64,000 nucleotides of DNA, taken from assembly GCA_946613885.1 (NCBI GenBank), contig CAMOGA010000001.1:23640-87639 (forward strand), written 5' to 3'. The number at the start of each line of letters is the position of its first letter. Within the stretch, counting starts at the first letter, position 1. The notes under the pieces are model-generated. The model had not been told where the DNA came from. It was given only the letters and a program-made list of their open reading frames with translations, and ran no database searches. The position numbers and the translations under genes are program-made. The stretch is from an uncultured Pseudomonadota bacterium (lineage in GTDB: Bacteria; Pseudomonadota; Alphaproteobacteria; Rs-D84). Positions 1,013 through 54,022 of this stretch are shown here, piece after piece.

Positions 1013-1046
1013 GACCTTTCCCTCTTTTGTTATTTTTCCTTTTGTG

Positions 1047-3979: not shown

Positions 3980-5116
3980 ATGAGAAAGACCAGTTTTCTT
4001 GCGGCACTGACAGGATTAGCATCCATGACACCGTTCATGGCTGATGCGGCATATCCTGTATATAACCCACAACAATTGGCACGTCAGGGTTATGTTGTTA
4101 ACACGCAATATTATCAACCACAATACAATATGCAACAAATGCCAGGGCGCACAAATATTACCCCACAACAAATTGCTATGGTAAACGGTCGTCCAAATAA
4201 CGTTGGTGCAACAAATCCGAATCGTATCACTGGTGCGTTGCCGCGCGTTGGTTCATCTGCAACAAATGCTGGCCGTCAATATTATCAATCTGCTGATTAC
4301 GACAGATTGGCAGAAAGTGGTTTATACATCGGTTTATCTGCCGCATACAGTACCGCAATCAGTGGTGATATGTCCGCGGACTATTCTGGCGAAAACAATT
4401 CATTTTTTGCACCGGGGTCTTTCCGTGCATCGGGTATAAAATCTGACAGTGTAATTCCATTACAGGTTTCGGTTGGTGCCGCGATTAACAGTGATATTCG
4501 TGTAGATTTTTCATATTTACGGTATTCTGGTATGTCATATGCTGACAATATCCAAACATCCACAGGCGACGGTTTTGTTGATGCAACGGTATCTGGTGGT
4601 GCGATTACGTCCAATTCAACAATGTTAAACGTTTATTACAACATCGATTCATTTACTGGAAATGTTGCAGGCGGCTCTTTACGTCCATACGTTGGTGCCG
4701 GTGTTGGTTTGGCATTAAACACAATCGCAGATTATGTCGTGTTTGATGATTCTTTTTATGATGAAACCGGTGATTTAGGACCTGGCAGTGTTGAACCCGG
4801 CGGATTAACCGCGATTTCCGATGTTTATGGATATCACAACGGTGGCACAATGGAACAACTGGCTTTTCAATTAGAGGCCGGACTTACAACATCTATGAAC
4901 GATGGATTAAAATTGGACTTTTTTGTTCGTTATGCCAATTTGGGTAAAGTAAAAACATCTGGCTCTATCGTTGTTTCGCAAACAGAATGGTTAAGTGATG
5001 GTGCCGGTGATGAATACGAGGCACCGTATGACAGTGTTTTCCATTATACTAATTGGACAGAAAGTGGACGTTTAAGCAGTTTGGATGTTGGTGTCAGATT
5101 AAGATTAGAATTTTAA
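3980..5116 (+). CDS. Outer membrane beta-barrel protein, hypothetical, with a C-terminal ...RLRLEF.
   Basis: Signal peptide. Gly/Ser/Tyr-rich amphipathic strands. Terminal Phe motif. Confidence 0.6.
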   Translation: MRKTSFLAALTGLASMTPFMADAAYPVYNPQQLARQGYVVNTQYYQPQYNMQQMPGRTNITPQQIAMVNGRPNNVGATNPNRITGALPRVGSSATNAGRQYYQSADYDRLAESGLYIGLSAAYSTAISGDMSADYSGENNSFFAPGSFRASGIKSDSVIPLQVSVGAAINSDIRVDFSYLRYSGMSYADNIQTSTGDGFVDATVSGGAITSNSTMLNVYYNIDSFTGNVAGGSLRPYVGAGVGLALNTIADYVVFDDSFYDETGDLGPGSVEPGGLTAISDVYGYHNGGTMEQLAFQLEAGLTTSMNDGLKLDFFVRYANLGKVKTSGSIVVSQTEWLSDGAGDEYEAPYDSVFHYTNWTESGRLSSLDVGVRLRLEF

Positions 5117-5131
5117 TAAAACAACACAAAA

Positions 5132-6853
5132 ATGAACAAAAAAATTTGTAAAATATCTTTGTTTTCTATGATTTTGGCAGCTGTCGCAACAATGCCATCG
5201 GATGCCGCAATCAAAAACAAAAATGCCAATCGTTCATATGCAGGTGCATATCAACAGGTAAACGCCATGCGTTATGCCCAAGAATACGCAGATGCCACCG
5301 CCACAAATGCCACAACAGCCAGTGCAACGGACAATTTGCCTGTTGCTGTGGATGATGAAAAATTGGCACACGCAATCATAAATAACGAAGCCGACGCCCC
5401 AGATATTTCACAACTGGAATCATGTTCAATGATTTATCCAAACGGCGTATTTAAATGGGCAGTCCCAGAATCTGGTATTCGTAAAAATTCCACCCCACAA
5501 TGCGTTGCGGTTGTTGAATTAATGGATGCAAACACCAATACAGTTTTGGCAACAACGACTGTCGCAGCCGGCGATTCGATGAAATGTAATATTGATTCTT
5601 TTCCTAAATCTGGAATATCACATGCCGTATTAAATGGTCAAATTGAATTGCCTGCGGACGAGGCACCAACAATCGAAGATGTGACCGCTATTATGAACGA
5701 AGAACAAAAACAAAACGCGGGATTAAAAATCATTGCCGCCGCATTGGTCAGCGGGGTTGCAGGAAATTTATTGGCTCCAAAAGAGGCAGGAAAATCAAAC
5801 GGTAAAATTCCACTAGGAACCGGAAAAACACAATTAAAAGACACTGCAATTGCCGCAACAGCCGGCGCAGGCATCATGGCGGCCAGCACCTTTTCTGGCA
5901 AAGTTGCGGGCGACACAATTAAATCAACCGCTGTAAATGCTGCATCTGGGATGCTTGTTGGAAATATGTTGGCTGCAACCGGCGGTGGCGGTGTTTTGGC
6001 AACAACAAAATGTTCTGTTAATGGGACTGAATATGACTGTGTTATGGGGGATTATAATGTCGTTGGTAAGTCAATAGAAATAAATAAAGATAATACATAT
6101 ATAATCAATGAACAAGATGAAATAAAAGAGTGCAAAAAAAACTCAGAAGGAAAAATAGAATGTGACCCATTCTCCAAAAAAATAACAAATATTATAATCA
6201 AGGCAGAAGCAAACTCTGGAAACGACACAGAAATGAAAGAGATTAAAGGCAAGAGAGACCAGATACAAAAAGATATGATGCGTTGGTGTAAAAACGAGGA
6301 TGAATGGAAAAAATGTGGACAAAACGATAATGTAAATGTTTTTTATGAAATTGCAACACATCAGTGTCCAGATGATTCTGACAAAACATGCCTAAATGCG
6401 AACGAGGTAACCCAAACCATTGGTGCGTATGCTGTCTTTGCCAACGGAACATTAGATAAAAAATCGGGGTATAAAGAATGGTCTGAAATTTCTAATAAAA
6501 ACCACACCTATTGGAGACGTAATCTTGATGGCACTGTTTATACACAAATAACAGAATCAGAATCCAAGGGTCAATTTGAACCAAAAACCCGCAAAGCATC
6601 TGATGGCGGCCTGATTGATTTATCAAACCAGGCACGTATCAAAGGAACTGTTGCCGGCGGGGCGACTGGGGCTGCGTTGGGTGGATTTGCCGGATATCAG
6701 GGGGCAAAAGATGAAATTTCCCAACGGTGGCTTGCTGCACGCCAAGAATATGACGATTCTTTATTAGGTTTTGTATGTGTGACGGGTGCACGTTATTTGG
6801 AACCATACAACAATTACGTTGCCATCCCAGAACCAGGGAAAACAGAACAATAA
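5132..6853 (+). CDS. Secreted Cys-rich protein with a central Gly/Ala small-residue (glycine-zipper-like) segment.
   Basis: Signal peptide MNKKICKISLFSMILAAVATMPSDA. A central region AAALVSGVAGNLLA...ATAGAGIMAAS...AASGMLVGNMLAATGGGGVLATT resembles the motifs in the 12614/15652 paralogs. Many Cys in the C-terminal half. Confidence 0.55.
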   Translation: MNKKICKISLFSMILAAVATMPSDAAIKNKNANRSYAGAYQQVNAMRYAQEYADATATNATTASATDNLPVAVDDEKLAHAIINNEADAPDISQLESCSMIYPNGVFKWAVPESGIRKNSTPQCVAVVELMDANTNTVLATTTVAAGDSMKCNIDSFPKSGISHAVLNGQIELPADEAPTIEDVTAIMNEEQKQNAGLKIIAAALVSGVAGNLLAPKEAGKSNGKIPLGTGKTQLKDTAIAATAGAGIMAASTFSGKVAGDTIKSTAVNAASGMLVGNMLAATGGGGVLATTKCSVNGTEYDCVMGDYNVVGKSIEINKDNTYIINEQDEIKECKKNSEGKIECDPFSKKITNIIIKAEANSGNDTEMKEIKGKRDQIQKDMMRWCKNEDEWKKCGQNDNVNVFYEIATHQCPDDSDKTCLNANEVTQTIGAYAVFANGTLDKKSGYKEWSEISNKNHTYWRRNLDGTVYTQITESESKGQFEPKTRKASDGGLIDLSNQARIKGTVAGGATGAALGGFAGYQGAKDEISQRWLAARQEYDDSLLGFVCVTGARYLEPYNNYVAIPEPGKTEQ

Positions 6854-6879
6854 AAAAAACGCCAAACGGCGTTTTTTTA
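6852..6879. terminator. Bidirectional rho-independent terminator between convergent genes.
   Basis: aaaaaacgcc-aaac-ggcgttttttt: a GC stem with A and T tracts on both sides. Confidence 0.7.
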
Positions 6880-6880
6880 A

Positions 6881-8125
6881 TTATTTATGTTTATACGCCA
6901 AAACCAACGGCACCACTTTATCACGATATTGCATTGGTATTTTTTCAATTGGAATCAACAAAGAATTACCCTGACCCGCAGACATCTTTGGCAATACATC
7001 ACCAGATTTAGCGTTTATAATCGTATCCAAACGCACAGAAATTTTATCTGTGGTTAATGGTAATATAAAATTAATAACATCACCCTGCTTTATCTCGTTA
7101 CGCAATTCCAGTGTAATATTTTTATCGTCTATGTTTGTTATAACACCCGCCGCATGATATTCAGAATTTGAATGTGTCGATTCGTAATCATGTGCATCTG
7201 GTGGTAATGGCCCATCAAAAAATGCGGTTGTATATCCACGTGTTTCCAATAAATTCAAATCATCCATAAACGGTTGCGGATTAAAATGTTCAGGGTCACG
7301 TGCATACGCATCCAGCGCATTACGATACGCACGCGTCACAGAACCAACATAATATTCACTGCGATTACGTCCTTCGATTTTAAGTGTATCTGGATGCGAT
7401 TCGATTACTTCTGCCAAACGCGGCATTAAACATAAATCTTTGCTGTTCATGATATACGCACCGCGTTCATCTTCTTCGATTGGCATTTCAACCCCAGATT
7501 GTTTTTCACGTAAAATCACATCGTATTTCCAACGGCACAATTGCGCGCATGCGCCACGATTGGCAGGACGACCCGTGATATAATTTGATAACAAACAACG
7601 GCCTGAATAAGACATACACATCGCACCATGAACAAATATTTCCAAACCAATATCAGGACACTGTTCACGTATCGATTTAAATTCATTATGTGAAACCTCG
7701 CGTGCCAGAACACATTGAACCGCACCCGCCTGTTGCCAGAATTTAACAGTAGATGCCGAACAAATATTTGCCTGGGTTGAAATATGAATCGGAATATCTG
7801 GATGATGTTCACGCACCCACATTAACACCCCTGCATCAGATATAATCAACGCATCAGGTTTCAAATAATTCAAAACCTCGCTAACACGCCCCATATTTGC
7901 ATAATCCCTATCATGTGCGAACAAATTAAACGCCAAATAAACACGTTTACCATGTTGATGCGCAAAATCGATACCCTGCTTTACTTCATCTACTGTAATT
8001 TTTGCACGCGCACGCATTGAAAAACCGGGCAATCCGGCATAAATTGCATCTGCACCATACAGGATAGCCGTTTTAAACGCATCCAATGTTCCTGCTGGGG
8101 CTAAAAGTTCTGGTAATTTAATCAT
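6881..8125 (-). CDS. Peptidase U32 family protein (YegQ/YhbU/TrhP-like).
   Basis: The N-terminus MIKLPELLAPAGTLDAFKTAILYGADAIYAG is characteristic of U32 peptidases. Length 414 aa, with Cys-rich motifs in the central region. Confidence 0.8.
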   Translation of the reverse strand: MIKLPELLAPAGTLDAFKTAILYGADAIYAGLPGFSMRARAKITVDEVKQGIDFAHQHGKRVYLAFNLFAHDRDYANMGRVSEVLNYLKPDALIISDAGVLMWVREHHPDIPIHISTQANICSASTVKFWQQAGAVQCVLAREVSHNEFKSIREQCPDIGLEIFVHGAMCMSYSGRCLLSNYITGRPANRGACAQLCRWKYDVILREKQSGVEMPIEEDERGAYIMNSKDLCLMPRLAEVIESHPDTLKIEGRNRSEYYVGSVTRAYRNALDAYARDPEHFNPQPFMDDLNLLETRGYTTAFFDGPLPPDAHDYESTHSNSEYHAAGVITNIDDKNITLELRNEIKQGDVINFILPLTTDKISVRLDTIINAKSGDVLPKMSAGQGNSLLIPIEKIPMQYRDKVVPLVLAYKHK

Positions 8126-8187
8126 GCGATGTATTGTATCAATGATTTTTGCAATTTCAATATTAAAAAACGGGCATTTGCCCGTTT

Positions 8188-8730
8188 TTACAACATTTTT
8201 ATAACATCTAATGCTTGAACTATTGCTTCATTCTGCTGTTCAAATTCATTTTTTAATTTCTTTCCAATTATTGCTTTTTGGGTCGCCTTTTTTAATGCTT
8301 CTTTCTTTAATGTTTGTTCTCTTGCTTTGTTGATGATTATATTGTATAACTTTTTTGCCATAGTAAATCTGTTTGCTCGCAATTCAGATGTTGCACCTTG
8401 TGCATCGTGTAATTCACAATTCAAAAACAACAGTTTTTTTCCGGTTTTATCCATAATTGTCATATCTACGATTTCACTTATATCCGTTACATCTTTTATA
8501 ATCTCGCTTCGTGAACGATCGCCATATACCGGATTTGTCTCTTTAACATCATCTTCGTGGAAAGACATTTTAATATCCAAAGTGTCAAATCGAAATATTA
8601 AACGAACCAATTTTTTTCTCCTAGGAGCAATCGGTGCATTAGATATATGTATTTTTTCAGATTCTTGGACTTTTTTAATCAGTGTAGAAAAAAATTCTTT
8701 TTCAGCCATAATATTGTCTTGCGATAACAT
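8188..8730 (-). CDS. Hypothetical protein, 180 aa, charged, with no signal peptide.
   Basis: AAGGAAG Shine-Dalgarno sequence upstream of ATG 8730. No recognisable motif. Confidence 0.45.
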   Translation of the reverse strand: MLSQDNIMAEKEFFSTLIKKVQESEKIHISNAPIAPRRKKLVRLIFRFDTLDIKMSFHEDDVKETNPVYGDRSRSEIIKDVTDISEIVDMTIMDKTGKKLLFLNCELHDAQGATSELRANRFTMAKKLYNIIINKAREQTLKKEALKKATQKAIIGKKLKNEFEQQNEAIVQALDVIKML

Positions 8731-8856
8731 TTTACTTCCTTTTATTCTTTAACAACATATTATGTATTATATCATATATATAAAAAAAAAAAAAACAATA
8801 TTTCCGAAAAAAACTCTTGATTTTATGAAACAAAACATATAATATAATCTCACATC

Positions 8857-8932
8857 GCCAGTTTAGCTCAGCTGGTAGAGCATCTGATTTGTAATCAGAG
8901 GGTCGTTGGTTCAAGTCCGACAACTGGCACCA
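8857..8932 (+). tRNA. tRNA-Thr (anticodon UGU).
   Basis: Manual cloverleaf: acceptor GCCAGTT/AACTGGC, anticodon stem TCTGA/TCAGA with loop TTTGTAA, T-arm GTTGG-TTCAAGT-CCGAC, genomic CCA, short variable loop. A misregistered anticodon stem would give GTA (Tyr), but Tyr requires a long variable arm, which is absent. Confidence 0.85.
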
Positions 8933-8938
8933 GAATAA

Positions 8939-8962
8939 CCGCAGAAATCTGCGGTTTTTTTA
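8939..8962 (+). terminator. Rho-independent terminator after tRNA-Thr.
   Basis: ccgcag-aaat-ctgcgg followed by ttttttt. Confidence 0.7.
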
Positions 8963-9112
8963 TTATTTTTACTTATTACACTATGTTATAATATTATTAC
9001 ACCTTGTTATATTTTCGCCTTTTTTATCTTTTTTTACACAAAATCTGCACAATATATAAAAAATATTGACAAATACATTATTTCGTGTTAAATATATTCA
9101 AACAAATTATTT

Positions 9113-21517: not shown

Positions 21518-22569
21518 TTTATTAAATCCAATGTTATATCGTCCAATATCAACATACCACGCGGTGTAGTATGCAAATATTCATTATTTATTGCAACCAA
21601 ATCTTTATGTTTGTTTACCCAATTAAAATCAATCTGATTTTTAACATCATCTGACAATTTAACACCACGTATTGTTCGCAACCCAGTTAATATTTTTTCA
21701 ACAGCACGTGTTTCATCACTGATTTTTTCAAACAATTCATAATTTCCGCGTTGTTCATACCAAATATCATCAATAAAAACACGTCCTGCCCCGCCCTGAC
21801 CGATTCCAATATATGCACCACCATCCCATATGTTTTCATTATGTAAACAATGTTGATTTGGTGTGGCATAATTAGACACTTCATATCGTGGCAAATTCAA
21901 ATTTTCACCAATTGCGGTATACATATCCGCCATAGTATTATTATCAGGCATATTTAAATTCATTTTTCCAAACGGAGTATTTTTTTCAATTGTCAATTCA
22001 TACATTGACACATGTTGCAACCCCAGTTTATTTATTTCATTACACAAATCAATCACAGATTGCACATTATGATTTGGCAAACCATAGATAAAATCTGCAC
22101 TGACCCGTAAATTCATATTTTGTGCAACATTTAACAAATCCTGTGCCTGACGCACATTATGTCTGCGCCCCATAAATTGCAATTCAGCGTCTGTTAAAGA
22201 TTGTATTCCAACCGACAAACGATTAACACCAATTGATACAAAATCAGACAATTTATTTTTATCTAATGTCCCAGGATTAGATTCTATCGTAATTTCACAA
22301 TTTTTATCTATATCGAAATTCTTATGAATACAATTCATTATCTGTTCAAAAATTTTGATTGGCATCAAAGATGGTGTTCCACCCCCAAAAAATATTGTGG
22401 GAATATGTACCTGTCCCAATTTGTCCGACCAAAATTTTAATTCACTACAAATATCACAGGCGTATTTTTCCCAATCAGGATTATCACAAGCACGTGAAAA
22501 AAACGCGCAATATTTGCATTTCGACATACAAAACGGGACATGAATATAAAGATTATGCGGTATATTCAT
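21514..22569 (-). CDS. hemW: Radical SAM heme chaperone HemW, a coproporphyrinogen III oxidase-like protein.
   Basis: LYIHVPFCMSKCKYCAF radical SAM CxxxCxxC motif near the N-terminus. Start placed at ATG 22567-22569; the ORF-track start at 22614 adds a hydrophobic extension that looks unlikely. Confidence 0.8.
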   Translation of the reverse strand: MNIPHNLYIHVPFCMSKCKYCAFFSRACDNPDWEKYACDICSELKFWSDKLGQVHIPTIFFGGGTPSLMPIKIFEQIMNCIHKNFDIDKNCEITIESNPGTLDKNKLSDFVSIGVNRLSVGIQSLTDAELQFMGRRHNVRQAQDLLNVAQNMNLRVSADFIYGLPNHNVQSVIDLCNEINKLGLQHVSMYELTIEKNTPFGKMNLNMPDNNTMADMYTAIGENLNLPRYEVSNYATPNQHCLHNENIWDGGAYIGIGQGGAGRVFIDDIWYEQRGNYELFEKISDETRAVEKILTGLRTIRGVKLSDDVKNQIDFNWVNKHKDLVAINNEYLHTTPRGMLILDDITLDLIK

Positions 22570-22663
22570 GATAATGAATAATAGCCACATAAAAATAAAA
22601 TTCAACATAAACAAACGCTTTTTTTTATGTCAAATTTATGATATAATAACCCCCAGAAGGAAC

Positions 22664-24148
22664 ATGAAAAAGAATTTTTTTGCCTTTTTATGCACGTTTG
22701 CGGCACCGTTGATGTCTTTCGCATCGAACGAGGGTGTTCCGTCTTATTATTCTTCGACGACAACCATAAACGCAAACAACGCAGGATATACCGAATATCA
22801 AAAATACGGATATACAAAATACGTTGGAAATTCCGGACATAAACAGATTTTATCTTCACAAAATTATTCTTACCAGGTTCCACGTCCAAAGATGCCAAAA
22901 CAATCGCGTGGCGCAATGACTGTAAATGGTATTGCACAATCTACCGATGAACATAATACAACTATTTTTGCCGACTATTCCCGCCGTTTCGCAGATTTTG
23001 AATTCAAAACAGGTGTTAATTCTGTTTTGGAATGGGACGATATGATTTTTAATGAAATCAATGTTGGCGCGAAACATGTATTTGACATCCGTGGTTTTGA
23101 TTTGGCTGTATATGGTTCATATACATACGGTGATTTAGCCAGCGGTGGCCTGTCGATGGATTACGATTTGGAACCATATGATTATGCATATCCAACGGAT
23201 GGTATTTTCACAATCTCTATGGGCGGACAAAGTGGCGATTTAAACAAATTAAAACTTGGTGTTGCGGCCCACCACATATGGAATTTGGGCGGATGGAAAT
23301 TAACACCACATATTGGTTATGAAATTTTCAAACATAATTTGAAAATGGATAATCATTTATACCCAAATCCTGGTGTATATTTGCCTTTGATGACAAATTC
23401 CGGCGATTACGTATATGGGGATACCGCTGGGAATTACTACGCGGTTGCGACAAATGTAGATATCGCCGATGATTCTGGGTTATATCAAATCTGTATGGGT
23501 CCCGAAGATATCAAGGTTGTTTTGGCATCATCTGGTGGCACAAACATCGATGGTGTTTTATATCCTTTGGGCAACACATTAACAACAGTTGATTATAATT
23601 CCAGCATGGGTAATATTCCATGGGGCGTATCTGAGGGCGACTGTGTTGTAATTGGTGGCGATGGCATTATTCGTGTTGACGGCACAACACATGTTTACAA
23701 CACAACATGGTCTGGTTTTTATCTGGGCTTAGAAATTGAAAAACAAATGACATTGGCAGATAATTTGCGTTTGTACGCACAAATCAGCATGCCAAAATAT
23801 TCATCCGAAGGCACATGGCCAAATCGTGATGATTGGCAACAAAACCCCAGTTTCTTGGACGAAGGCGACAATGGTGCTTTCGCATACGAGGCAGAAATGG
23901 AATATTCTTATCGCCTGTCTGACCGGTTACAGTTATCGTTAAAGGCCGATACAAACTATTTCCATATTGGTAAAATCCCGGGTGAATTATATGTTGCAGA
24001 AACCACTATATATTACGAAGATGAAAACAATCCGGGTAATTTTATCGCAGAAACACAACCCGCATACACAGAATATGTATCTGAATCTTTGAAAGAAGCA
24101 AACTGGCAATCTTTTGGTTTACATATTGGATTCAAATATTCGTTTTAA
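22664..24148 (+). CDS. Outer membrane beta-barrel protein, hypothetical, ending ...FKYSF.
   Basis: AGAAGGAA Shine-Dalgarno sequence before ATG 22664. Signal peptide MKKNFFAFLCTFAAPLMSFA. Terminal Phe. Confidence 0.6.
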   Translation: MKKNFFAFLCTFAAPLMSFASNEGVPSYYSSTTTINANNAGYTEYQKYGYTKYVGNSGHKQILSSQNYSYQVPRPKMPKQSRGAMTVNGIAQSTDEHNTTIFADYSRRFADFEFKTGVNSVLEWDDMIFNEINVGAKHVFDIRGFDLAVYGSYTYGDLASGGLSMDYDLEPYDYAYPTDGIFTISMGGQSGDLNKLKLGVAAHHIWNLGGWKLTPHIGYEIFKHNLKMDNHLYPNPGVYLPLMTNSGDYVYGDTAGNYYAVATNVDIADDSGLYQICMGPEDIKVVLASSGGTNIDGVLYPLGNTLTTVDYNSSMGNIPWGVSEGDCVVIGGDGIIRVDGTTHVYNTTWSGFYLGLEIEKQMTLADNLRLYAQISMPKYSSEGTWPNRDDWQQNPSFLDEGDNGAFAYEAEMEYSYRLSDRLQLSLKADTNYFHIGKIPGELYVAETTIYYEDENNPGNFIAETQPAYTEYVSESLKEANWQSFGLHIGFKYSF

Positions 24149-25219: not shown

Positions 25220-25966
25220 TTAATTTATATGTTGGCCATATATTGCAACACGATCTATTTGCCCTAATTGTGTCCGAACTGCACAACGCGCAGCACAAGA
25301 ATCAGTACACACAGACGCAGATTCCCAATCAATACTGAATATCCATGATAAACTTGCTGTTGGTGAATATATAACATCTTCATTATCACGAAAGCCCGTC
25401 GCACGACACCAACAATATTGTCCACCATCATTTATTGGATTTCCTGGCTTCCTATATATTCCAGAAACACTGCTACACATTGATTCGCCATATACAGTAC
25501 CATAACTAAACAACGCTTTCCACTCATAACGATTTAAATCCGTAAAATCTGTATTGCAAGTTATCAAATTCCCTTCATAATAACACCTGTCTATATTGTT
25601 TGTTGTGTCTACACCGCGACCATATCTATGATTACCATTTATTGTCACATCAAATGTCGCAAAATCATATTCAGGTCTTATTTTCCATCCTTTAAACTTA
25701 TACCCCGGTTTTGTTGGATTGGCTGGTAAATTTATTGCTGTATCATAGGTACACGTATTTGAATTTGTTGACGTTGTGTCTAATAATGTATTGCTGTTAT
25801 ACCATCTTAAATCTATTGTTTCGGGTTCAAATTCTGCACGTAAATTAACAGGACCGGTATCTGTATTTAATACATTTGTATCACATGTTTCACCGCCAGT
25901 GACATCTGTTGCAAATGAAGGCATCGATATAATCATCATCGATAATACCAATATACGTTTTAACAT
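25220..25966 (-). CDS. Secreted Cys-rich protein containing the Listeria-Bacteroides-repeat-like motif KPGYKFKGWK.
   Basis: Start at ATG 25964-25966 (MLKRILVLSMMIISMPSFA) with GGAG upstream; ATG 25993 is an alternative. Shares the GYKFKGW motif with the C-terminus of CDS 48485..51634. Confidence 0.5.
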   Translation of the reverse strand: MLKRILVLSMMIISMPSFATDVTGGETCDTNVLNTDTGPVNLRAEFEPETIDLRWYNSNTLLDTTSTNSNTCTYDTAINLPANPTKPGYKFKGWKIRPEYDFATFDVTINGNHRYGRGVDTTNNIDRCYYEGNLITCNTDFTDLNRYEWKALFSYGTVYGESMCSSVSGIYRKPGNPINDGGQYCWCRATGFRDNEDVIYSPTASLSWIFSIDWESASVCTDSCAARCAVRTQLGQIDRVAIYGQHIN

Positions 25967-32821: not shown

Positions 32822-35263
32822 ATGAAAAGATTTATCGCAGTATTAAGCAGTTTGTTGGTTTTACCCGCTTTTTCAGAGGTTGCACCAACATATTACGATG
32901 ATTCAATCGAATATTCTGACGGCGTTATCGATGACGCAGATACAGAATATGTTGATGAACAATCTGAATCCGTGGCGCAAAAAAACGTATCCCAACGGAC
33001 AACGATTAATCGTTCAACTGCATCGCGTGCGATAACATCTGGGAATAATGGTGTTGTATCACGCGCAAATGCTAATTCTCGTGCGGTTGCGTCTTCACCA
33101 CGTTCAACAACTGGAACGGCACGTGGAACTGCATCACGCACAACAAAAACAAATGCGGTTGTATCACGTACACCAACAACGACACGTGCAACGGTAAAAT
33201 CACGCAATACACAAAACACATCCAAGGCGACAACTGCCCGTGTTGGAACATCTAATAATCCAGTAATGCCAACATACAGAACACGTCAAAACAACACATC
33301 TGCCACGTTAAATGATTCTGGTGATGCATTGTATATCCCAAATTCGGCACGTGTTAGTGTTGCAAATCGTCGTTCATCTGCACGTATATCAACTACGGCA
33401 CGCGCATCAACGCCTGTAATTACCGAAGAAGATATATCCACAACCACATCAAATTTGACGGCTTTGGCGGAATTAACCGATTATTGCAAGGCACAATATG
33501 CGGCATGTATGGATAATTATTGTAATGTTTTGGACGATAATCAGGGTCGTTGTTCATGTTCCAAAAACATCAAAAATTACGCTAAGACAGAGGCAGCTTT
33601 GGCGGCTGCCACCGAAGAATTTCAAAATGTCGTTCAAAAAATTAAATACATTGGATTAACTGGCAATCAAATTGAAACTCTGTTTACCGAGACCGAGGCC
33701 GAATTAACCATGAAATCAAAAACAGATTCTTCACGGTTAAAAACCAGTTTGGACGCAATTAAAAAGAATATTGTTGACGTATCAACATCTTCATCTTCGT
33801 CTGCCGATTTAAACACCGGTTTATCATGGGATATTTCCGGATTGTTAAATGCAGATTTTACATCTGGATTTGATTTGTCATCATTTTTGGGTCAAAACAA
33901 CACATCAACATCCAACGTATCAAATCAACGTGGCGAAACATTATACAAAACCGCACAAAATCGTTGCAGAACGGCGGTGTTAAATTCTTGCACCAGTCAG
34001 GGTATTGATGCCAATGTGATTACAAATTCTTATGATTTGGAAATTGATAAACAATGTGTTGCCTATGAACGTTCTTTGAACGAGGCAAACAGTGAAATGC
34101 GTAACAATGTCACAAATGCGCAATTCATCTTGCAACAGGCACGTTTATTATTGGCACAAAACCGTAATTCTTACGATTTACGTGGTTGTGTGGCGGCAAT
34201 TGATTCATGTATGCAGGACGATTATGTCTGTGGCAGCGATTATGAATTATGTCTGGATCCAACGGGTAAGTATCTGGCAAACGGCGAAGTTGTCAAGGGT
34301 GGAACACCCGGCGTTTCTGGCGGTCAGAATATAAATACAACTCCTATATCTGATTCTGGCGAGAATACTTTAGACAAATGGACCAGTGGCGGTATGTATA
34401 ATTTATATTCTATCTGGAATTATGGTGATAATAAAAATGCGTGGGGCGTTGGTAAACAAGAAAACCTAGGTGGATATATTGATGCCGAATTAACAAATTG
34501 GAAATCAATCTATGCAAAATCCAAAGACACAACAAAAACAGATAGCATGGCAACATATTTGTTGCAAAAAATTGGTTATATCGACAGCGATGACAAAGTT
34601 CATGGTATGTGTGCTTCGGTTATGAAACAATGCCAAGATTACACATACAGCAACCAGGCATCGAATAACAAAAAATATATTCCTGCGAATGAAGTTGTTC
34701 GTCAATACCTGGCATCTACATTATCAAAGATAAAGGTTCAACAAGATTCAATTTTGTCTGATTATGCCGAGGGCTGCCGTTCTGACGTTCAATCATGTTT
34801 ATCAACAAACGGTTATGATGATTCAAATACATCATCCACCGCATCAAAAACCGCGGTTAACGCATGTGCCGCCGAAATTACAACATGTATGTCTGTTGGC
34901 GGATACCAGGTTAAAGATGGCGTAAAATTAACTCTGCGCGCAATGTCAGATTGGGTTGCAAGTATTTTAATCAATTGCCCAGTCAACACATATCTGGTTG
35001 ATGACGGTATTGGTGATGGGACTGTAATCGGTTCCACAAATACTACTGGCACAGCAACACAATGTAAACCTTGTGGATACCCATTTATATATACCAGTGA
35101 CGGAGACAACACAAATCGCCGCACCACAAATATGGCAACATCATCTGGCGGTCAGGCAACAATTTGTACTTGCCCAGAAGGTTATGACGATTACATAATA
35201 ACCGATGACAGTAACACCAGAACATTGGGTTGTATAGAACAAACAACAACGTCTGGTAATTAA
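32822..35263 (+). CDS. Large secreted protein with an N-terminal Thr/Ser/Arg/Ala-rich low-complexity region and a Cys-rich C-terminal domain.
   Basis: Signal peptide MKRFIAVLSSLLVLPAFS. The TARGTASRTTKTNAVVSRTPTTTRATVKSR low-complexity region. More than 40 Cys in the C-terminal 550 aa. Confidence 0.55.
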   Translation: MKRFIAVLSSLLVLPAFSEVAPTYYDDSIEYSDGVIDDADTEYVDEQSESVAQKNVSQRTTINRSTASRAITSGNNGVVSRANANSRAVASSPRSTTGTARGTASRTTKTNAVVSRTPTTTRATVKSRNTQNTSKATTARVGTSNNPVMPTYRTRQNNTSATLNDSGDALYIPNSARVSVANRRSSARISTTARASTPVITEEDISTTTSNLTALAELTDYCKAQYAACMDNYCNVLDDNQGRCSCSKNIKNYAKTEAALAAATEEFQNVVQKIKYIGLTGNQIETLFTETEAELTMKSKTDSSRLKTSLDAIKKNIVDVSTSSSSSADLNTGLSWDISGLLNADFTSGFDLSSFLGQNNTSTSNVSNQRGETLYKTAQNRCRTAVLNSCTSQGIDANVITNSYDLEIDKQCVAYERSLNEANSEMRNNVTNAQFILQQARLLLAQNRNSYDLRGCVAAIDSCMQDDYVCGSDYELCLDPTGKYLANGEVVKGGTPGVSGGQNINTTPISDSGENTLDKWTSGGMYNLYSIWNYGDNKNAWGVGKQENLGGYIDAELTNWKSIYAKSKDTTKTDSMATYLLQKIGYIDSDDKVHGMCASVMKQCQDYTYSNQASNNKKYIPANEVVRQYLASTLSKIKVQQDSILSDYAEGCRSDVQSCLSTNGYDDSNTSSTASKTAVNACAAEITTCMSVGGYQVKDGVKLTLRAMSDWVASILINCPVNTYLVDDGIGDGTVIGSTNTTGTATQCKPCGYPFIYTSDGDNTNRRTTNMATSSGGQATICTCPEGYDDYIITDDSNTRTLGCIEQTTTSGN

Positions 35264-48012: not shown

Positions 48013-48192
48013 TTAGAAAATCCAGTTCACCAAAGCGTTCAAAATACTATCTACGACAAAAAAGAACAACGCCGCCAGGCCTGAAAACAGCAATATCATA
48101 AAAGTAGTATTAATCACAGTTTCACGTGTTGGCCAAACAATTTTAAACCATTCGGAACGCACTGATTTTATAAATTCAATAATTTTTTTCAT
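48013..48192 (-). CDS. secE: Protein translocase subunit SecE (short single-transmembrane form).
   Basis: Manual translation MKKIIEFIKSVRSEWFKIVWPTRETVINTTFMILLFSGLAALFFFVVDSILNALVNWIF, 59 aa. Canonical position between tRNA-Trp and nusG. Confidence 0.75.
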   Translation of the reverse strand: MKKIIEFIKSVRSEWFKIVWPTRETVINTTFMILLFSGLAALFFFVVDSILNALVNWIF

Positions 48193-48229: not shown

Positions 48230-48303
48230 TGGCAGGGGCTGAAGGAATCGAACCCTCATCCGCGGTTTTGGAGACCGATATTCTACCGTTGAACTAAGCC
48301 CCT
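48230..48303 (-). tRNA. tRNA-Trp (anticodon CCA).
   Basis: Reverse complement AGGGGCTTAGTTCAACGGTAGAATATCGGTCTCCAAAACCG...GGTTCGATTCC...CCCCTGCCA, with anticodon loop CTCCAAA. Confidence 0.85.
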
Positions 48304-48484: not shown

Positions 48485-51400
48485 TTATTCCGCAGGCACA
48501 ACTGTCCACCCCTTGAATTTATACCCCTGTTTAGCCGGTGCATCCGGCAAAGATATGGTCGTACCATATTCGCATGATCCGGTTGATATTTCATTACCTT
48601 CTTCATCATGATACACCAATGTTATGTCGTTTGCACTGCACGATGCATTATATTGCCCATTGTTTTGGATATCGCCATATCCAGTATTACAAGACGTTGT
48701 ATATGTACAAACATTATTCACAACACTTAACGAACAACTGGCATTTGTCGCCGCACATGCCTGACATTCACTCCATTGTGCTGTGCACGTTGTATCATCA
48801 GTTATTGTAAATGTTCCGCCCGCTGCAACAGTGTTTCCACCGCATGACCAATTGGTAAATACACTGTTCGTTTTTGAACATGTATTCGACAATGTGGTGA
48901 CGGCTTCGTCAGATATATATTCTGTTGAATCTGTTGGTGCGGTTCCGGTTCCATCGCCACATGAATATGTGACAGTATATGTTTCGGTTCCTTGTTCAAT
49001 CCATTTGGCATAAAATGTTTTATTACCGGTGGCGGATGCCGATATTGTCTGTGATATCGCACAAGATGTTAATCCAGAATCAGTGCACCATCCCTTAAAC
49101 ACATAACCTTCCCTGGTTGGAACACCATTAATCGTTGCGCCGGTTCCAAAAGTATACGTTGTTGGTGCATTGGCATAATTTGTTCCACAATTACCCGCAG
49201 TGGCAGCATTACAATTTTCAACATAAGGAACAAAAGCATGCGCAACATTACCCAATTCAAATTGAACATTAGTTGCCTCACCATTTGCCGGAGTTATATC
49301 AGTAGAATAATTATTGGATGAGAGTTGAAGCCAAACATATCTGGTATTTGACAAGGTTGTAAACGTATAAGTAGTAGTAGATGAAGACACCCATCCGCTA
49401 TCTCGTAAATAAGGATTAGAAGTACTGCTTTTAACACTATTTGCATATTGTTGCACAGCCAAACGCAAATTTCCTGTTCTGGATATAGTATATGTAGTAT
49501 TAGGTGTAACCGGTATTAAATTGACAGCATGGATACGTTTAGAATAATTTCCATTGTTATCATTATACCAATACCCGCCCCCCTGGGCCCATTGATTATC
49601 AAACAAGTTGCAATAAGCTGCACACGATACCCCGCCAGTCAAATCATATGTAATATTATAAGTACTCAGTGAACATGATGCATTATATTTACCATTGTTT
49701 TGAATATTTCCATACCCAGTATTGCAAGATGTTGTATATGTACAAACATTATTCACAACACTTAACGAACAACTGGCATTTGTCGCCGCACATGCCTGAC
49801 ATTCACCCCATTGTGCTGTACATGTTGTATCATCAGTTATTGTAAATGTTCCGCCCGCTGCAACAGTGTTTCCACTGCACGACCATCCAGTAAATATATC
49901 ACCTGTCTTGGTGCAGGTATTGTTTGCCACCGTCACAGATGAACCAGATTCATATTCTGTTGAATCTGTTGGTGCGGTTCCAGTTCCATCGCCACATGCA
50001 TATGTGACATTGTAAAAATCAACCTCGCTGCAACTGACATTATATGCGCCATTGTTTTGAATATTTCCATATCCAGTATTGCAGGATGTTGTATATGTAC
50101 ATGTATTATTTACTACGCTTAATGAACACGATGCATTTGTCGCCGCACATGCCTGACATTCACTCCATTGTGCTGTGCATGTTGTATCATCAGTTATTGT
50201 AAATGTTCCGCCCGCTGCAACATTTGTTCCACCGCATGACCAATTGGTAAATACACTGTTCGTTTTTGAACATGTATTCGACAATGTAGTGACGGATTCA
50301 TCAGATATATATTCTGTTGAATCTGTTGGTGCGGTTCCAGTTCCATCGCCACATGCATATGTGACATTATATGTTTCGGCATCCGTATTAATCCATTTAG
50401 CATAAAATGTCTTATCACCAGTGGCAGATGTTCCGATTGTTTGTGACATGGCGCAGTTTTGTAATTCCGCATCTGTACACCATCCAGCAAACACACTTCC
50501 GGATTTAGTTGGCGTTCCCCCAACTGTTGCCCCTGTAAGCTCATAATATTGTGTTGGTGCACCAGAATAATTTGTTCCACTATTCATCACGTATGAAATA
50601 TTATATTTTTTCACACACAAAACCTTACTATTCCAATAACTTTCCCATCCTGTTGTATATTTTTGTGTTCCTGACGGACAAGAAGTCGACAACCCTGTAT
50701 TTGCAAATGTCCTGACCATCGTACTGGTTGTATTTGAACCACGTGGGGTTATACCCGCAAAAAAGGTTGCAGGTATATATCCTGACAATTTACTACAACC
50801 TTCAAATGTACTAACAAATTCATTAATTGCACCAACAGTTATGTTTGCAAACAAACCGTCTGGCAACGATGTTAACTTAGAACAACCGTAAAATGTATTT
50901 CCAAAGGCCCCAGCTGCCCCACCAGTTATTTTTGCAAACAACCCTGCTGGTATTGATGCTAAACTGGTACAATTTAGAAACGTTGCCACAAAAAGGCTTT
51001 GTTGAGCAGGTACAGAAACAGCATTTGGAAAAAACAAATTTTCTGGGATTGCTGTTATACCAGTATTACTAAATGTACTGGAAAACATCGCGGTTGCAGC
51101 CGATGTATAACCACTAAACAAAGTTGCAGGAATTGATTTTAAATTGTTTGCATTACTAAATGTTCCAGCAAAACGTGGTTGCGCACCATCTGCTGGATTT
51201 TCGGAAATATACGGAAATATCTCTGATAAATCGCCAGAAATAGATGCTATTTTATTCGCCTCATCCGAAGAGCCGCCCATAAACGATATTGCAGCAATTT
51301 GCATACTTGTATTATAATCAGTCGCGGTACCGGAAAATTTAACTGTTCTAGCATTTGCATATGACCACGTGCATGTATATGTTGTATCAGTAGTACCTGT

Positions 51401-51634
51401 ACGTGTAATAATCTTACCAGAAACATCGGACGCTGTACTACTTAACGTTCCACCAGTACCACAATCAACATTAAATGTTCCAGCAGCAGATAAAGAAAAA
51501 CTCAAACGGGATGTCGAGGATGTTGTTGTAACAGAAAAAGGATACGTTACTGCATTTGCCACACCCATTGCACAAAACATAAAAACAACAGTTGCAAATA
51601 CGCATGATAAAATACCATCAACGAATCGTTTCAT
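48485..51634 (-). CDS. Giant secreted or surface protein, 1049 aa. Architecture: signal peptide, BspA-type leucine-rich repeats, Listeria-Bacteroides repeat (Flg_new-like, GYxFxGW...FYAKW) domains, and a triplicated module of about 120 aa with a Cys-rich end (CQACAATNASCSLSVVNN.CTYTTSCNTGYGNIQNNG).
   Basis: Signal peptide. Repeated IP(A/E)(T/N/G)LF... LRR units. Three GW-containing repeats (SVFAGWCTD, GYVFKGWCTD and a terminal GYKFKGW). Near-identical DNA direct repeats. Confidence 0.7.
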   Translation of the reverse strand: MKRFVDGILSCVFATVVFMFCAMGVANAVTYPFSVTTTSSTSRLSFSLSAAGTFNVDCGTGGTLSSTASDVSGKIITRTGTTDTTYTCTWSYANARTVKFSGTATDYNTSMQIAAISFMGGSSDEANKIASISGDLSEIFPYISENPADGAQPRFAGTFSNANNLKSIPATLFSGYTSAATAMFSSTFSNTGITAIPENLFFPNAVSVPAQQSLFVATFLNCTSLASIPAGLFAKITGGAAGAFGNTFYGCSKLTSLPDGLFANITVGAINEFVSTFEGCSKLSGYIPATFFAGITPRGSNTTSTMVRTFANTGLSTSCPSGTQKYTTGWESYWNSKVLCVKKYNISYVMNSGTNYSGAPTQYYELTGATVGGTPTKSGSVFAGWCTDAELQNCAMSQTIGTSATGDKTFYAKWINTDAETYNVTYACGDGTGTAPTDSTEYISDESVTTLSNTCSKTNSVFTNWSCGGTNVAAGGTFTITDDTTCTAQWSECQACAATNASCSLSVVNNTCTYTTSCNTGYGNIQNNGAYNVSCSEVDFYNVTYACGDGTGTAPTDSTEYESGSSVTVANNTCTKTGDIFTGWSCSGNTVAAGGTFTITDDTTCTAQWGECQACAATNASCSLSVVNNVCTYTTSCNTGYGNIQNNGKYNASCSLSTYNITYDLTGGVSCAAYCNLFDNQWAQGGGYWYNDNNGNYSKRIHAVNLIPVTPNTTYTISRTGNLRLAVQQYANSVKSSTSNPYLRDSGWVSSSTTTYTFTTLSNTRYVWLQLSSNNYSTDITPANGEATNVQFELGNVAHAFVPYVENCNAATAGNCGTNYANAPTTYTFGTGATINGVPTREGYVFKGWCTDSGLTSCAISQTISASATGNKTFYAKWIEQGTETYTVTYSCGDGTGTAPTDSTEYISDEAVTTLSNTCSKTNSVFTNWSCGGNTVAAGGTFTITDDTTCTAQWSECQACAATNASCSLSVVNNVCTYTTSCNTGYGDIQNNGQYNASCSANDITLVYHDEEGNEISTGSCEYGTTISLPDAPAKQGYKFKGWTVVPAE
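48690..50600. repeat. Three near-identical intragenic direct repeats (each at least about 360 bp; copies near 48700, 49740 and 50090).
   Basis: tcatcagttattgtaaatgttccgcccgctgcaaca recurs at 48797, 49835 and 50189. The ORF-track phantom ORFs 48783..49013 and 50175..50405 are near-identical. Risk of assembly collapse. Confidence 0.8.
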
Positions 51635-51803
51635 AAAAAAACTCTCTTTTTCTCCAATTCTCTAACGATAAAATATATCGCCGGTGCCACTATAGACAAT
51701 CCATGTTTTTTTATCAAACAAAAAAAATTTTTAACACCATATTTTTTACTTGCACTGTATAAACAAAATTTTCTAAGATAAAAATAATTAATGTAGGGGT
51801 CAC

Positions 51804-52493
51804 ATGGCAAAGGTTATTGAACCACCGATTTTAATGTCACGAATTTTGGCATTTGTGCTGGCTGCATCTATTGTGGTGTTGGCGGCATTGGGGTTCGTTT
51901 TATATAAAATGATTCCACTAGAACGGCCAGAGGTTTTCTTTCTAATCAATGCGACACGTTCTGTTAATGTTGTTATTGAACCGTTTGATGCCAATAACGC
52001 AAACAATACATCTATTGAAAATTATAAACGTGGTTTTATTCGTGAATACATAATTGCACGAAACGAATTAAACGCAAATCCAATTATCACTCGCAATAAT
52101 TGGAATAATATTGTAAAACCTTGGTCTGGTAATACGGTTTACAAGAATTTTACCAGTACCAGTTTATATCGTAAATATATGCGCAATACGCAACCGCAAA
52201 ATGTATCGTGCTATGTAGATTTTTCTGATCCAGAACACTCGGATGCAATCATAAAAACAAACCGTAATGATTATACTGTGTATTTCAGGTGGATTTGCAA
52301 AAATATTTCTGGACAGCCGACAACAAAAAATTATAAGATACAAATAAAGATACAAACAGATTTGGACAAACGTATCAGTGGAACCATGGAAAACCTGGAA
52401 AAATTAAAAATAAATCCGTTGGGAATCCAGGTTACACAATACAAAATTCAAGATGACAAAGATCCTTTGAGTTCTGACGTTATCGGAAAATAA
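51804..52493 (+). CDS. Bitopic inner-membrane protein, putative VirB8/DotI-like T4SS component.
   Basis: A short cytoplasmic N-terminus, one transmembrane helix (ILAFVLAASIVVLAALGFVLY), and a periplasmic domain of about 190 aa. Sits immediately upstream of VirB9-like and VirB10 genes on the same strand. The call rests on context and topology, not strong motifs. Confidence 0.4.
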   Translation: MAKVIEPPILMSRILAFVLAASIVVLAALGFVLYKMIPLERPEVFFLINATRSVNVVIEPFDANNANNTSIENYKRGFIREYIIARNELNANPIITRNNWNNIVKPWSGNTVYKNFTSTSLYRKYMRNTQPQNVSCYVDFSDPEHSDAIIKTNRNDYTVYFRWICKNISGQPTTKNYKIQIKIQTDLDKRISGTMENLEKLKINPLGIQVTQYKIQDDKDPLSSDVIGK

Positions 52494-52513
52494 GTTTGTT
52501 TCACAAGGTAAGG

Positions 52514-54022
52514 ATGAAGGACATGACATTACTAAACACATTAAAATTAAATGTTTCAATATTGGCGGTTATGTGTTCCATAACTCCTGCGTGGGCTGCG
52601 TTTCAAATGGCATGGGACAATCCAAACGCAAATATGGCAATGGGTTCATCTAAACCTGGGTACGCGAATTTAACATGGTCCACAGGGACAGTATTGCCGA
52701 TAAAAACACGCTCTGGTATGGCAACATTGGTGACATTACCAAATGGTGAAAAAATTGCAGATATTGTGACTGGTAACGACGGTTTGTTTAATATTGATTC
52801 TTCTGTTGGCGAACAATCAATGTACATTACACCAGCCTCAGGAAATACCGGTAATGATACAAACATGATTGTCACAGGACAATCTGGAAATAAATATATA
52901 TTCTATCTGCGTGCATATCCGGTTAATTCATCTGAAATCACATATTCCCAGGTTGATATTTCCACTGGTGGTTCGGGTGTCGTTGCGACAAATAATGCAA
53001 CACAAACAAATGGCTCTATGGGTTCGATATTCAAAAAATCTGCACCGAAAACGTCAACCATTGGTGTTGATGGCGAAGATTATGGATGGATAAAAACAAT
53101 GAAAATTGACCCGTCTGAATTTCGGTTTGATTTGGATATTTTCGTTCCTAATCCTGATGATTATGTAATCGCACCAGAACGTGTATGGCGCGACAGAATA
53201 TTCACTTATATTGATTTCGGTGACAAAGTTATTTCCATGACACAACGCCCTGTTGTATCTTTATTGGTCGAAGGTGGCGAAAGCCCTGTTGGTTTCCGCA
53301 CAGATGGCGAAGACGGCCGTCTATTAATTGTCGAGGCTGTTGGTGACATGGTTTTACGCAGTGGACAAAGAATTGTTTGTATAAAGAAACGTGCAAAACC
53401 GTTCTTGATTGCTGATACCGCATCTGTTATGGCATTGGCTGAGGCAAATGTTGCACAATCAATGGCTGCAAATCAATCATTGAACACAATTGCATATAAC
53501 GATGAACAATATGCAATGAACGCGAATATGAACGATTATTATTCAACTACACCAACCTATGTCTACAATCAACCAAATGATATGATGTATGCAAATGGCG
53601 CAATGTATGGAACAATGGATTATACAGGTTCAAATTCTGGTGCAAATATGATACCGACATCACATGCCACAGCGGGATCTTATTTACCACAAACAAATAT
53701 TCCTTTGATAACCAACTCGCAAACAGGCGTTGCGGTTGAATTAAAATCAGACACCTCGGTCAAGGCATTAAATGATTACTGGACAGATTTGTTGGCTAAA
53801 TTCAGCGGTGATGATGGTGCCGGTTTATTAACACCATATAAAAATAGCGTATTTTTCGCTGTTGACGAACAGGGGGTTGGTGATTTGGGCGCTGAATCTG
53901 CGACTGCACGGTTATACCGGTTAAGAATTGGGCCATTGTCTGATATCGATACAGCGCAACAATTATGTGATCAACTATTAAAATTCAGTGGTGCCAGTTG
54001 CCACGTGGTCAGAATACAATAA
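52514..54022 (+). CDS. VirB9/TrbG/DotH-like T4SS outer-membrane core protein with an extended Asn/Tyr/Met-rich C-terminal region.
   Basis: Signal peptide ending ITPAWA. A region resembling the VirB9 C-terminal beta-sandwich (YVIAPERVWRDRIFTYIDFGDKV...RPVVSLLVEGGESPVGFRTDGEDGRLLIVEAVGDMVLRSGQRIVCIKK). Start chosen at ATG 52514 after AAGG; the track start at 52496 is a TTG. Confidence 0.6.
   Translation: MKDMTLLNTLKLNVSILAVMCSITPAWAAFQMAWDNPNANMAMGSSKPGYANLTWSTGTVLPIKTRSGMATLVTLPNGEKIADIVTGNDGLFNIDSSVGEQSMYITPASGNTGNDTNMIVTGQSGNKYIFYLRAYPVNSSEITYSQVDISTGGSGVVATNNATQTNGSMGSIFKKSAPKTSTIGVDGEDYGWIKTMKIDPSEFRFDLDIFVPNPDDYVIAPERVWRDRIFTYIDFGDKVISMTQRPVVSLLVEGGESPVGFRTDGEDGRLLIVEAVGDMVLRSGQRIVCIKKRAKPFLIADTASVMALAEANVAQSMAANQSLNTIAYNDEQYAMNANMNDYYSTTPTYVYNQPNDMMYANGAMYGTMDYTGSNSGANMIPTSHATAGSYLPQTNIPLITNSQTGVAVELKSDTSVKALNDYWTDLLAKFSGDDGAGLLTPYKNSVFFAVDEQGVGDLGAESATARLYRLRIGPLSDIDTAQQLCDQLLKFSGASCHVVRIQ

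Follow-up and report, generated by a model that had tools for sequence, protein, structure and literature searches.

The gap between tRNA-Trp and the genes of a type IV secretion system (T4SS) in an uncultured alphaproteobacterium of the order Rs-D84 is occupied by a large gene, which raises the question of what its product does and whether it belongs to the secretion system at all. The gene is located in a 64,000-nt stretch of contig CAMOGA010000001.1 (GenBank assembly GCA_946613885.1; here termed the window, to which coordinates refer unless another contig is named), and the open reading frame (ORF) of 1049 amino acids (aa) with an ATG start that had been reported in a first-pass annotation of the sequence is indeed present at 48485..51634 on the minus strand. 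It probably encodes a Sec-exported, disulfide-rich modular binding protein, most likely an adhesin, of a rumen bacterium that is related to Ca. Enterousia and probably genome-reduced. Such a product would be a recognition protein that is either exposed at the cell surface or released. The large, exported, multi-module protein of the adhesin type predicted in the first-pass annotation is supported as a prediction by both domain and strain evidence, and the 46 cysteines of the mature protein occur in module-wise sets, which is compatible with an exported, oxidised protein.

Export is indicated by the first 28 residues (MKRFVDGILSCVFATVVFMFCAMGVANA; 51551..51634, on the minus strand like all features of this gene given below), which read by eye as a type I signal peptide with an AxA cleavage site between GVANA and the following V (MKR...GVANA-V). 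The first 85 nt are kept in all strains, and the two types of head found at this locus part exactly after ...GVANA, which supports the call. The mature protein starts with a head of two parts, an N-terminal beta-sandwich with the motif GTF.VDCG.GG (aa 29-134; 51233..51550) and a series of five leucine-rich repeats (LRRs) of ~29 aa with a Cys-containing cap that ends in ...KVLCVKK (aa 135-343; 50606..51232). The sandwich has no match in Pfam and was recognised in an AlphaFold2 model of the head built from an alignment of 25 sequences (mean predicted local distance difference test score, pLDDT, 93.8; predicted template-modelling score, pTM, 0.92), which places its strands within model residues 5-106, ahead of the repeat region. 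The nature of the repeats is apparent from a comparison of the head profile with the PDB, which matched LRRTM (E=4.8e-7), variable lymphocyte receptors (VLRs) and repebodies (2e-5 to 1e-3), and the uncharacterised structure 4fs7 (2.4e-5). They follow the consensus F..TF.GC..LTSIP.GLF..IT.GA, with five [IL]Pxx[LF]F motifs at aa 168, 196, 228, 257, and 287 (period ~29 aa) and an 87-nt (29-aa) direct repeat within the LRR region.

All the LRR motifs listed in the first-pass annotation (IPATLFSG, IPENLFF, IPAGLFAKITG, and LPDGLFANITVG) are present in the protein. Although their identification as LRRs is borne out by the PDB comparison, their assignment to the BspA type is not: the LRR_5 model (PF13306) has no match on the whole protein at E<=1, and the LRR segment alone yields E=0.9 and 9.9 bits against a gathering cutoff of 27.7. 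The PARCEL model (TIGR02167) matches a single 12-residue stretch below its cutoff (17.9 bits vs 30; E=0.0019), and Pfam scans of the window protein returned no match to DUF285 (PF03382). Precomputed tables tag some members of the family with PF13306 or PF03382; LRR_5 is found at E<=0.01 in just 4 of 25 homologous head units (best E=1.9e-5). We read the repeats of the head as LRRs, in a protein that falls outside the BspA/LRR_5 family in its defined sense.

The head is followed by beta-grasp-like repeats of the Flg_new type, which had been claimed from the sequence and are now confirmed both by PF09479 (E=4.3e-34; 116.9 bits vs a cutoff of 27; six stretches) and by the Listeria-Bacteroides repeat model TIGR02543 (E=8e-25; 86.9 bits vs 20.95). 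The first repeat (F1; aa 344-419; 50378..50605) is canonical, of the Listeria-Bacteroides or InlB B-repeat type of PF09479/TIGR02543. The next two units belong to a set of three modules of 119 aa (357 nt) each, starting at aa 420, 539, and 884, in which a Cys-containing Flg_new repeat is joined to a 45-aa knot with six cysteines: M1 (50021..50377; repeat aa 420-491, knot aa 492-538), M2 (49664..50020; aa 539-610, with a divergent patch, and aa 611-657), and the mosaic M3 (48629..48985; aa 884-955 and aa 956-1002). The Flg_new part of the module carries four cysteines and by itself matches model positions 1-65 at 24.8 bits. The knot follows the pattern C..C...NA.C.........C.Y.T.C..GY.NIQN.G.Y..SC. 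Among the 120 homologs listed of the 207 that were found with the whole protein, a scope that applies to all homolog counts below, the knot occurs in 10; it invariably follows a Flg_new repeat without a gap and in some cases is repeated in tandem. By itself it has no Pfam match at E<=10, and the best match of its profile in the PDB was spurious (E=7). An assignment to Ephrin_rec_like / GCC2_GCC3 (PF07699) was ruled out, because the knot does not match the family model; PF07699 is found in other parts of some relatives.

At the DNA level, the modules form a family of direct repeats, in which a ~300-nt unit is present three times (48646, 49681, and 50038; spacings 1035 and 357 nt). The first-pass annotation had described a triplicated, Cys-rich module of about 120 aa with nearly identical DNA copies. 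The triplication stands, whereas near-identity is true only of a 33-nt core (48782-48814, 49817-49849, and 50174-50206; 94-100% identical), which contains the copy positions given there (48797, 49835, and 50189), because the modules as a whole are 79-88% identical, with longest exact runs of 57-76 nt. M3 resembles M1 in nt 51-153 (94-96% identity, vs 63-65% to M2) and M2 in nt 204-306 (94-98%); such a mosaic is what recombination among the modules, or gene conversion, should produce. M2 in turn contains a patch of ~100 nt (ESGSSVTVANNTCTKTGDIFTGWSCSG) that is 61-67% identical to M1 and M3 and occurs only in the window allele.

A further Flg_new repeat (F2) is split by an insertion. Its first strand (TYNITYDLTGG; aa 658-668; 49631-49663) is separated from the remainder (TNYANAPTTYTFG...FYAKW; aa 813-883; 48986..49198) by a domain of ~145 aa (aa 669-812; 49199..49630) that is bracketed by Cys pairs. 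The insertion shows when F1 and the interrupted F2 are set side by side, and also in the Pfam match of F2 (aa 816-877, the best Flg_new stretch of the protein), which starts at model position 9 and extends to position 65. The inserted domain is absent from the first-pass annotation. It has no match in Pfam, no relatives in a word-index homolog search, and no hit in a single-sequence search of the PDB. An exhaustive HMMER search of 1.84 billion representatives, by contrast, recovered 93 relatives at E<=1e-3, which share the signature ...KNLFD...PNTTYT.S...FTT...QLE.GS.AT.YEPY. The homologous stretch of one relative matches PHROG 18629, a "tail protein" (E=2.5e-12), other relatives bear tail-fibre or minor-tail segments, and the window domain itself matches phrog_11541 (E=1.2e-4). 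Its profile finds the alginase 4q8k (E=1.4e-5) and 8xmz (E=0.0019), a porphyran-binding carbohydrate-binding module (CBM) according to the Foldseek description. With an AlphaFold2 model of the domain (pLDDT 91), the top Foldseek matches in the PDB are CBM16, 8xmz, CBM4, and the lectin domain of lectinolysin, and a search of viral structures (BFVD) yielded 44 matches at E<=1e-3 (best 4.7e-7; TM-score 0.6-0.69) to tail-fibre, receptor-binding (RBP), distal-tail (Dit), and major-tail-protein-extension proteins.

From these profile and model comparisons, we conclude that aa 669-812 form a predicted CBM-like beta-jelly roll of the phage-tail type, and that the domain may bind glycans. CBMs of this kind decorate the tails of siphophages and serve in adhesion to the cell-wall glycans of the host (PMC6669499); a search for literature on a carbohydrate-binding extension of the major tail protein gave nothing. 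In two relatives (P0006 and P0008), a different domain (…GYTQLEYLQSTGTQYINTGF…) is inserted at the corresponding position, again inside a Flg_new repeat. Flg_new repeats may thus provide a general scaffold for nested binding domains.

The C-terminus bears on the question of whether the gene is complete. Residues 1003-1049 (...SCEYG...GYKFKGWTVVPAE; 48485..48628 including the stop codon) match the Flg_new model from position 4 to position 39 of 65 (E=6e-9), so the protein does stop mid-model, as had been noted. That it ends abruptly is contradicted by the homologs, since 21 of the 120, some of them only ~32% identical overall, likewise end 3-11 aa past the same G..F.GW motif. A decaying or truncated pseudogene without a true C-terminus, as the stop at model position 39 and an 80-aa frameshifted remnant on a short Logan contig from another sample might indicate, is exceedingly improbable: apart from the homologs that end alike, the ORF is intact over 3.1 kb, the exact ending ...GYKFKGWTVVPAE is kept in the closest alleles even where these differ elsewhere, and the region downstream of the stop codon, which comprises tRNA-Trp and secE, contains no out-of-frame continuation in any frame. 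In 17 other homologs, the half-repeat is followed by a further 145-194 residues, which form a Cys-rich C-terminal domain. The cysteine of the SC.YG motif is kept in 34 of 39 terminal modules, including that of the window protein. Judged from these sequence comparisons, the ~45-aa terminal half-repeat is a conserved module rather than an accidental end.

The alternative ending is also encoded separately in the window. The gene at 25220..25966 (minus strand) encodes a protein of 248 aa, counted from its ATG, which consists of a signal peptide, a terminal half-Flg_new module (model positions 10-45 of 65), and a Cys-rich domain of ~150 aa with a YCWC motif and a C..C...C ending that has no match in Pfam. 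The GYKFKGW motif that the first-pass annotation had found to be common to both proteins is present, but the small protein is not unrelated, as had been stated there. In blastp comparisons, its residues 42-245 are homologous to the last ~200 aa of 16 or more members of the family (E 5e-28 to 1e-9), that is, to the cassette of half-repeat and C-terminal domain, which makes it a relative of the family. The gene is thus this alternative C-terminal cassette in stand-alone form. Apart from its half-repeat, no paralogs of the large gene were found elsewhere in the window.

Comparison among strains, one of the checks proposed in the first-pass annotation, revealed alleles that differ by whole repeat units. 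Contigs whose flanks are 98-99% identical to those of the window and show identical synteny carry genes for 704, 1049, and ~1870 or more aa. The 704-aa allele, which was assembled twice with a difference of 1 nt (L001/L082 and L083), can be derived from the window allele by removal of exactly 1035 nt (345 aa), which is the larger spacing of the repeat family (D1), with the junction inside a module. The longest allele (L002/L079; L002 8983-14602) is a single ORF read through a scaffold gap in the LRR array and comprises ~1870 aa or more; it has two complete tandem heads with many more LRR units, separated by GCC2_GCC3-like Cys repeats (YTCASGYYLP...C.AC.SG..CPGG), and its 3' 1.27 kb are 99% identical to the window. 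In the gene calls, this allele is split, yielding an artificial product of 1533 aa (P0001). Of the partial alleles, that of L084 is 100% identical to the window over its first 1326 nt and then stops inside a repeat, whereas those of L085, L086, and L088 have the L002-type head. On the short Logan contig (L093, 1118-1360), the end of the signal peptide is joined out of frame to the last ~70 nt of the gene, yielding the 80-aa remnant mentioned above, which represents either a natural near-complete deletion or an artefact of k-mer assembly.

The alleles of this one locus, as assembled from short-read metagenomes, thus differ in the manner of size-variable repeat proteins, with junctions inside repeats. 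Of the phase or size variation that had been considered possible, the variation in size is therefore documented, whereas phase variation is not. The only tracts detected are C6 (49578) in the gene and A8 (51720) upstream of it, whose lengths were not compared between strains. Classification as a phase-variable contingency gene is not supported, because there is no simple-sequence tract in the gene.

Short-read assembly, from which every allele here derives, can collapse repeats or build chimeras from them, so the triplicated 1049-aa form might itself be an artefact, that is, a chimera or mis-join of co-occurring strains whose true gene has the 704-aa or some other form. The window allele has the structure of L001 in its 5' part and that of L002 in its 3' part, and the two overlap in a knot; no other record contains its exact product, numerous contigs are broken at this gene, the repeats share exact runs of 57-76 nt, and L002 contains an N-gap. 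We nevertheless regard an artefact as quite unlikely. L084 agrees with the window over the 1326 nt mentioned above and ends inside a repeat, as a contig would at a real repeat. Moreover, each inter-module junction occurs in another assembly, the 704-aa form has been assembled twice, and the divergent patch of M2 is unique to the window allele and therefore cannot arise from collapsing, duplicating, or mis-joining M1 and M3. Irrespective of which allele is correct, the existence of the gene and its modules is not in doubt.

The position of the gene next to a T4SS, noted in the first-pass annotation, offers a different explanation. Downstream on the same strand are tRNA-Trp (48230-48303), secE (48013-48192), nusG, rplK, rplA, and rplJ; upstream, in the opposite direction and at a distance of 169 nt, follow virB8 (PF04335), virB9/CagX (PF03524), and virB10/TrbI (PF03743), which are transcribed divergently. 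The intergenic region (51635..51803, unstranded) presumably contains both promoters; a scan for promoters and terminators gave matches there that were no more common than in shuffled sequence. An A8 tract (51720-51727) is located directly upstream of the best promoter-like match for the large gene. The protein could be a Sec-dependent substrate of the T4SS, of which pertussis toxin and its Ptl system provide an example, or serve as an adhesin through which the T4SS docks onto target cells. The arrangement is present in all assemblies of the species, and no other route of export across the outer membrane was identified.

Beyond the species, however, the association dissolves. Of 76 distinct family loci in other species (among the best 80 of 137 stretches with the head motif, with one genome per species), none has VirB8, VirB9, VirB10, NusG, or SecE within 6 kb, so the adjacency claimed earlier is a property of this locus and not of the family. 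In a related lineage (L091 and L092), virB9-virB8 lie ~120 nt from the tRNA-Trp/secE region without the large gene, which indicates that the adjacency of virB and secE is the backbone and the large gene an occupant of the gap. The N-terminal signal peptide is of the classical type, and a C-terminal signal of the kind recognised by T4SSs is not discernible. A function linked to the T4SS is therefore very improbable. When the same two contigs are compared with window positions 51804-54022, a sharp boundary of divergence appears at an intergenic site: the secE-nusG DNA is 96-97% identical, compared with 49% identity for the VirB8 protein and 71% for the N-terminus of VirB9, suggesting that the T4SS genes themselves may have undergone recombination or allelic replacement.

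The distribution of the family points instead to the biology of the host lineage. The head unit of ~317 aa occurs in 119 of the 120 listed homologs (35-50% identity), in N-terminal, internal, or C-terminal position, and the 137 stretches with the head motif all stem from metagenome-assembled genomes (MAGs) of gut or rumen Alphaproteobacteria, many of them named Ca. Enterousia. There are often several loci per MAG (up to five among those listed), and the window locus itself recurs in assemblies from sheep rumen. The family is thus confined to genome-reduced gut Alphaproteobacteria, comprising Ca. Enterousia and its relatives. The housekeeping proteins of the window cluster with proteins of MAGs named "Alphaproteobacteria bacterium", and matching the housekeeping genes to the flanks of the MAG loci did not narrow the placement; the kinship with Ca. 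Enterousia is inferred from the distribution of the family. One ORF of ~12.3 kb (L033; CACYHO010000002.1, ~4-12331) encodes a family member of ~4100 aa, so the family includes truly giant proteins. Members of Ca. Enterousia, a lineage within the order Rs-D84, have genomes that are mostly smaller than 1 Mb, lack respiration and flagella, and are predicted to be obligate symbionts or parasites that take metabolites from other cells (PMC12306168). Rs-D84 and Ca. Enterousia are widespread in the guts of ruminants, horses, chickens, and humans, but neither their partners nor their means of attachment are known (PMC12306168).

LRR heads typically bind proteins, which is relevant for another possibility, namely that the protein is released without an anchor and binds glycans or other ligands, be it for the capture of substrates, for binding of mucin or dietary polysaccharides, or as a decoy for phages or the immune system. 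The CBM-like domain, the polysaccharide-rich rumen habitat, and the failure to find an anchor or sorting signal are in its favour. Foraging for polysaccharides is nevertheless unlikely, because standard systems for sugar uptake and large parts of central metabolism are reportedly missing from Rs-D84 genomes (PMC12306168). Dimorphic head cassettes and expansion to multiple copies are more typical of recognition or antigenic proteins, and the lone conserved cysteine of the conserved terminal module hints at tethering. Together with the predicted preference of the head for proteins, these points make a released binder unlikely.

An exported adhesin, which we consider the probable function, would work through a division of labour among its modules. 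The LRR head would bind a protein ligand, the CBM-like domain a glycan on the surface of a partner or host cell, and the Flg_new repeats with their knots would form a rigid spacer, or stalk. As far as the short-read assemblies can be trusted, strain comparison shows that the locus diversifies by homologous recombination between its internal repeats, as seen from the exact 1035-nt difference between alleles and the mosaic modules, and by exchange or duplication of entire head cassettes behind the conserved signal peptide; strains of one species therefore carry alleles of 704, 1049, and ~1870 or more aa. Such allelic variation is compatible with diversifying selection on the specificity or antigenicity of a recognition protein that is exposed at the surface.

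Several findings weigh against this interpretation. Neither an outer-membrane anchor nor an autotransporter barrel, a lipobox, or a recognised sorting signal was found in the protein. The 76 family loci have no conserved neighbour, such as a transporter or an anchor protein, and the best cluster (7 of 76) consists of housekeeping genes. The Foldseek search of the head model against the PDB returned nothing significant and matched no LRR structure, and the PDB matches of the CBM-like domain were weak (best E=3.7e-3; TM-score ~0.35-0.42). To these must be added the uncertainties of the alleles discussed above, that is, their common origin from short-read metagenome assemblies, the N-gap of the L002 scaffold inside the LRR array, and the absence of the exact 1049-aa product from public gene calls.

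A more far-reaching proposal, which we consider rather unlikely as a whole, is that the family of head units constitutes the apparatus by which genome-reduced Rs-D84 and Ca. Enterousia recognise their partner cells. Which bacterial or protist surface is bound would depend on the exchangeable LRR heads and on a CBM that phage tails either share or have supplied, and replacement of heads and recombination of repeats would shift the range of partners, much as phages swap their receptor-binding proteins. The terminal half-Flg_new with its lone conserved cysteine might tether the protein in a new way, to the cell envelope or a partner subunit, either by a disulfide bond or by strand complementation, and the Cys-rich C-terminal domain, separately encoded at 25220, would represent an alternative ending. 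The family would be all the more interesting if it were indeed the partner-recognition system of Rs-D84.

The building blocks of the putative adhesin (LRRs, Flg_new repeats, and CBM) are of known kinds, and InlB of Listeria is its nearest functional analogy. InlB combines an LRR head with a Flg_new B-repeat of beta-grasp-like fold and mediates attachment and invasion (PMC8900821). Both are exported bacterial proteins in which an LRR head that binds, or would bind, a ligand is followed by one or more Flg_new (B-repeat) domains. The LRRs of internalins, however, are 22 residues long, whereas those of the window protein have a period of ~29 and an F..TF.GC core. The window protein also lacks the helical cap and the Ig-like inter-repeat domain of the internalins, its LRRs are preceded by a beta-sandwich, and it belongs to a Gram-negative host and has additional six-Cys knots and a nested CBM-like domain. 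Pfam matches to internalin, LPXTG, or GW-module families were not found in the window protein. Membership in the internalins of the InlA/InlB type was ruled out, because only the combination of LRRs and B-repeats is held in common.

The BspA-like LRR_5 proteins of Bacteroidota, Treponema, and Trichomonas and the DUF285/PARCEL proteins of Mycoplasma and Listeria share the core F.GC..L(T)S(I/L), but the second half of the window repeat (IP.GLF..IT) resembles LRRs of the VLR/LRRTM type, and in the window protein an N-terminal sandwich and a Cys cap are part of the head, which is a fixed unit. The CBMs of siphophage tails, which are found in evolved Dit, in tail fibres or RBPs, and in extensions of the major tail protein, match aa 669-812 both in fold and in sequence signature, whereas the window module is part of a cellular alphaproteobacterial protein, spliced into the loop of a Flg_new repeat and bracketed by cysteines. 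Proteins of the alpha-C/Rib family, the variable lipoproteins of Mycoplasma, and the repeat antigens of Anaplasma and Ehrlichia likewise vary in length via intragenic repeats and exchange domains like cassettes; they are not homologous to the window protein, whose variation is between strains.

Current family models do not capture the fixed head unit, the knot, the CBM nested in a Flg_new repeat, the terminal half-repeat with its alternative endings, or the dimorphism of heads at a locus of the core genome. Three of these, namely the head, the knot with its six cysteines, and the half-repeat at the C-terminus, have no coverage in Pfam and could be defined as new families. The locus and its multi-copy family provide a concrete candidate for the attachment machinery of Rs-D84 and Ca. 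Enterousia, and the separable modules (LRR head and phage-type CBM) could be used as probes for the ligand or the partner. The locus is also a natural example of rapid allele turnover by recombination of repeats, swapping of heads, and presence or absence of the gene within core-gene surroundings that are 98-99% conserved. It is useful for marking strains, and it cautions that short-read MAGs systematically break or collapse genes of this kind.

The window contains a few further genes of interest. The VirB9/CagX homolog (52496-54022, plus strand) has a match to the peptidoglycan-binding SPOR domain at its C-terminus (E=4e-4; 21.1 bits vs a cutoff of 21), a fusion that is unusual for VirB9. Two ORFs of ~815 aa (9113-11566 and 32822-35263, both on the plus strand) have no Pfam match at E<=1e-3. 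A protein of 526 aa (22568-24148, plus strand) matches the Pom family (Protochlamydia outer membrane protein; E=2e-9) and is a candidate for the major porin of a genome-reduced alphaproteobacterium.

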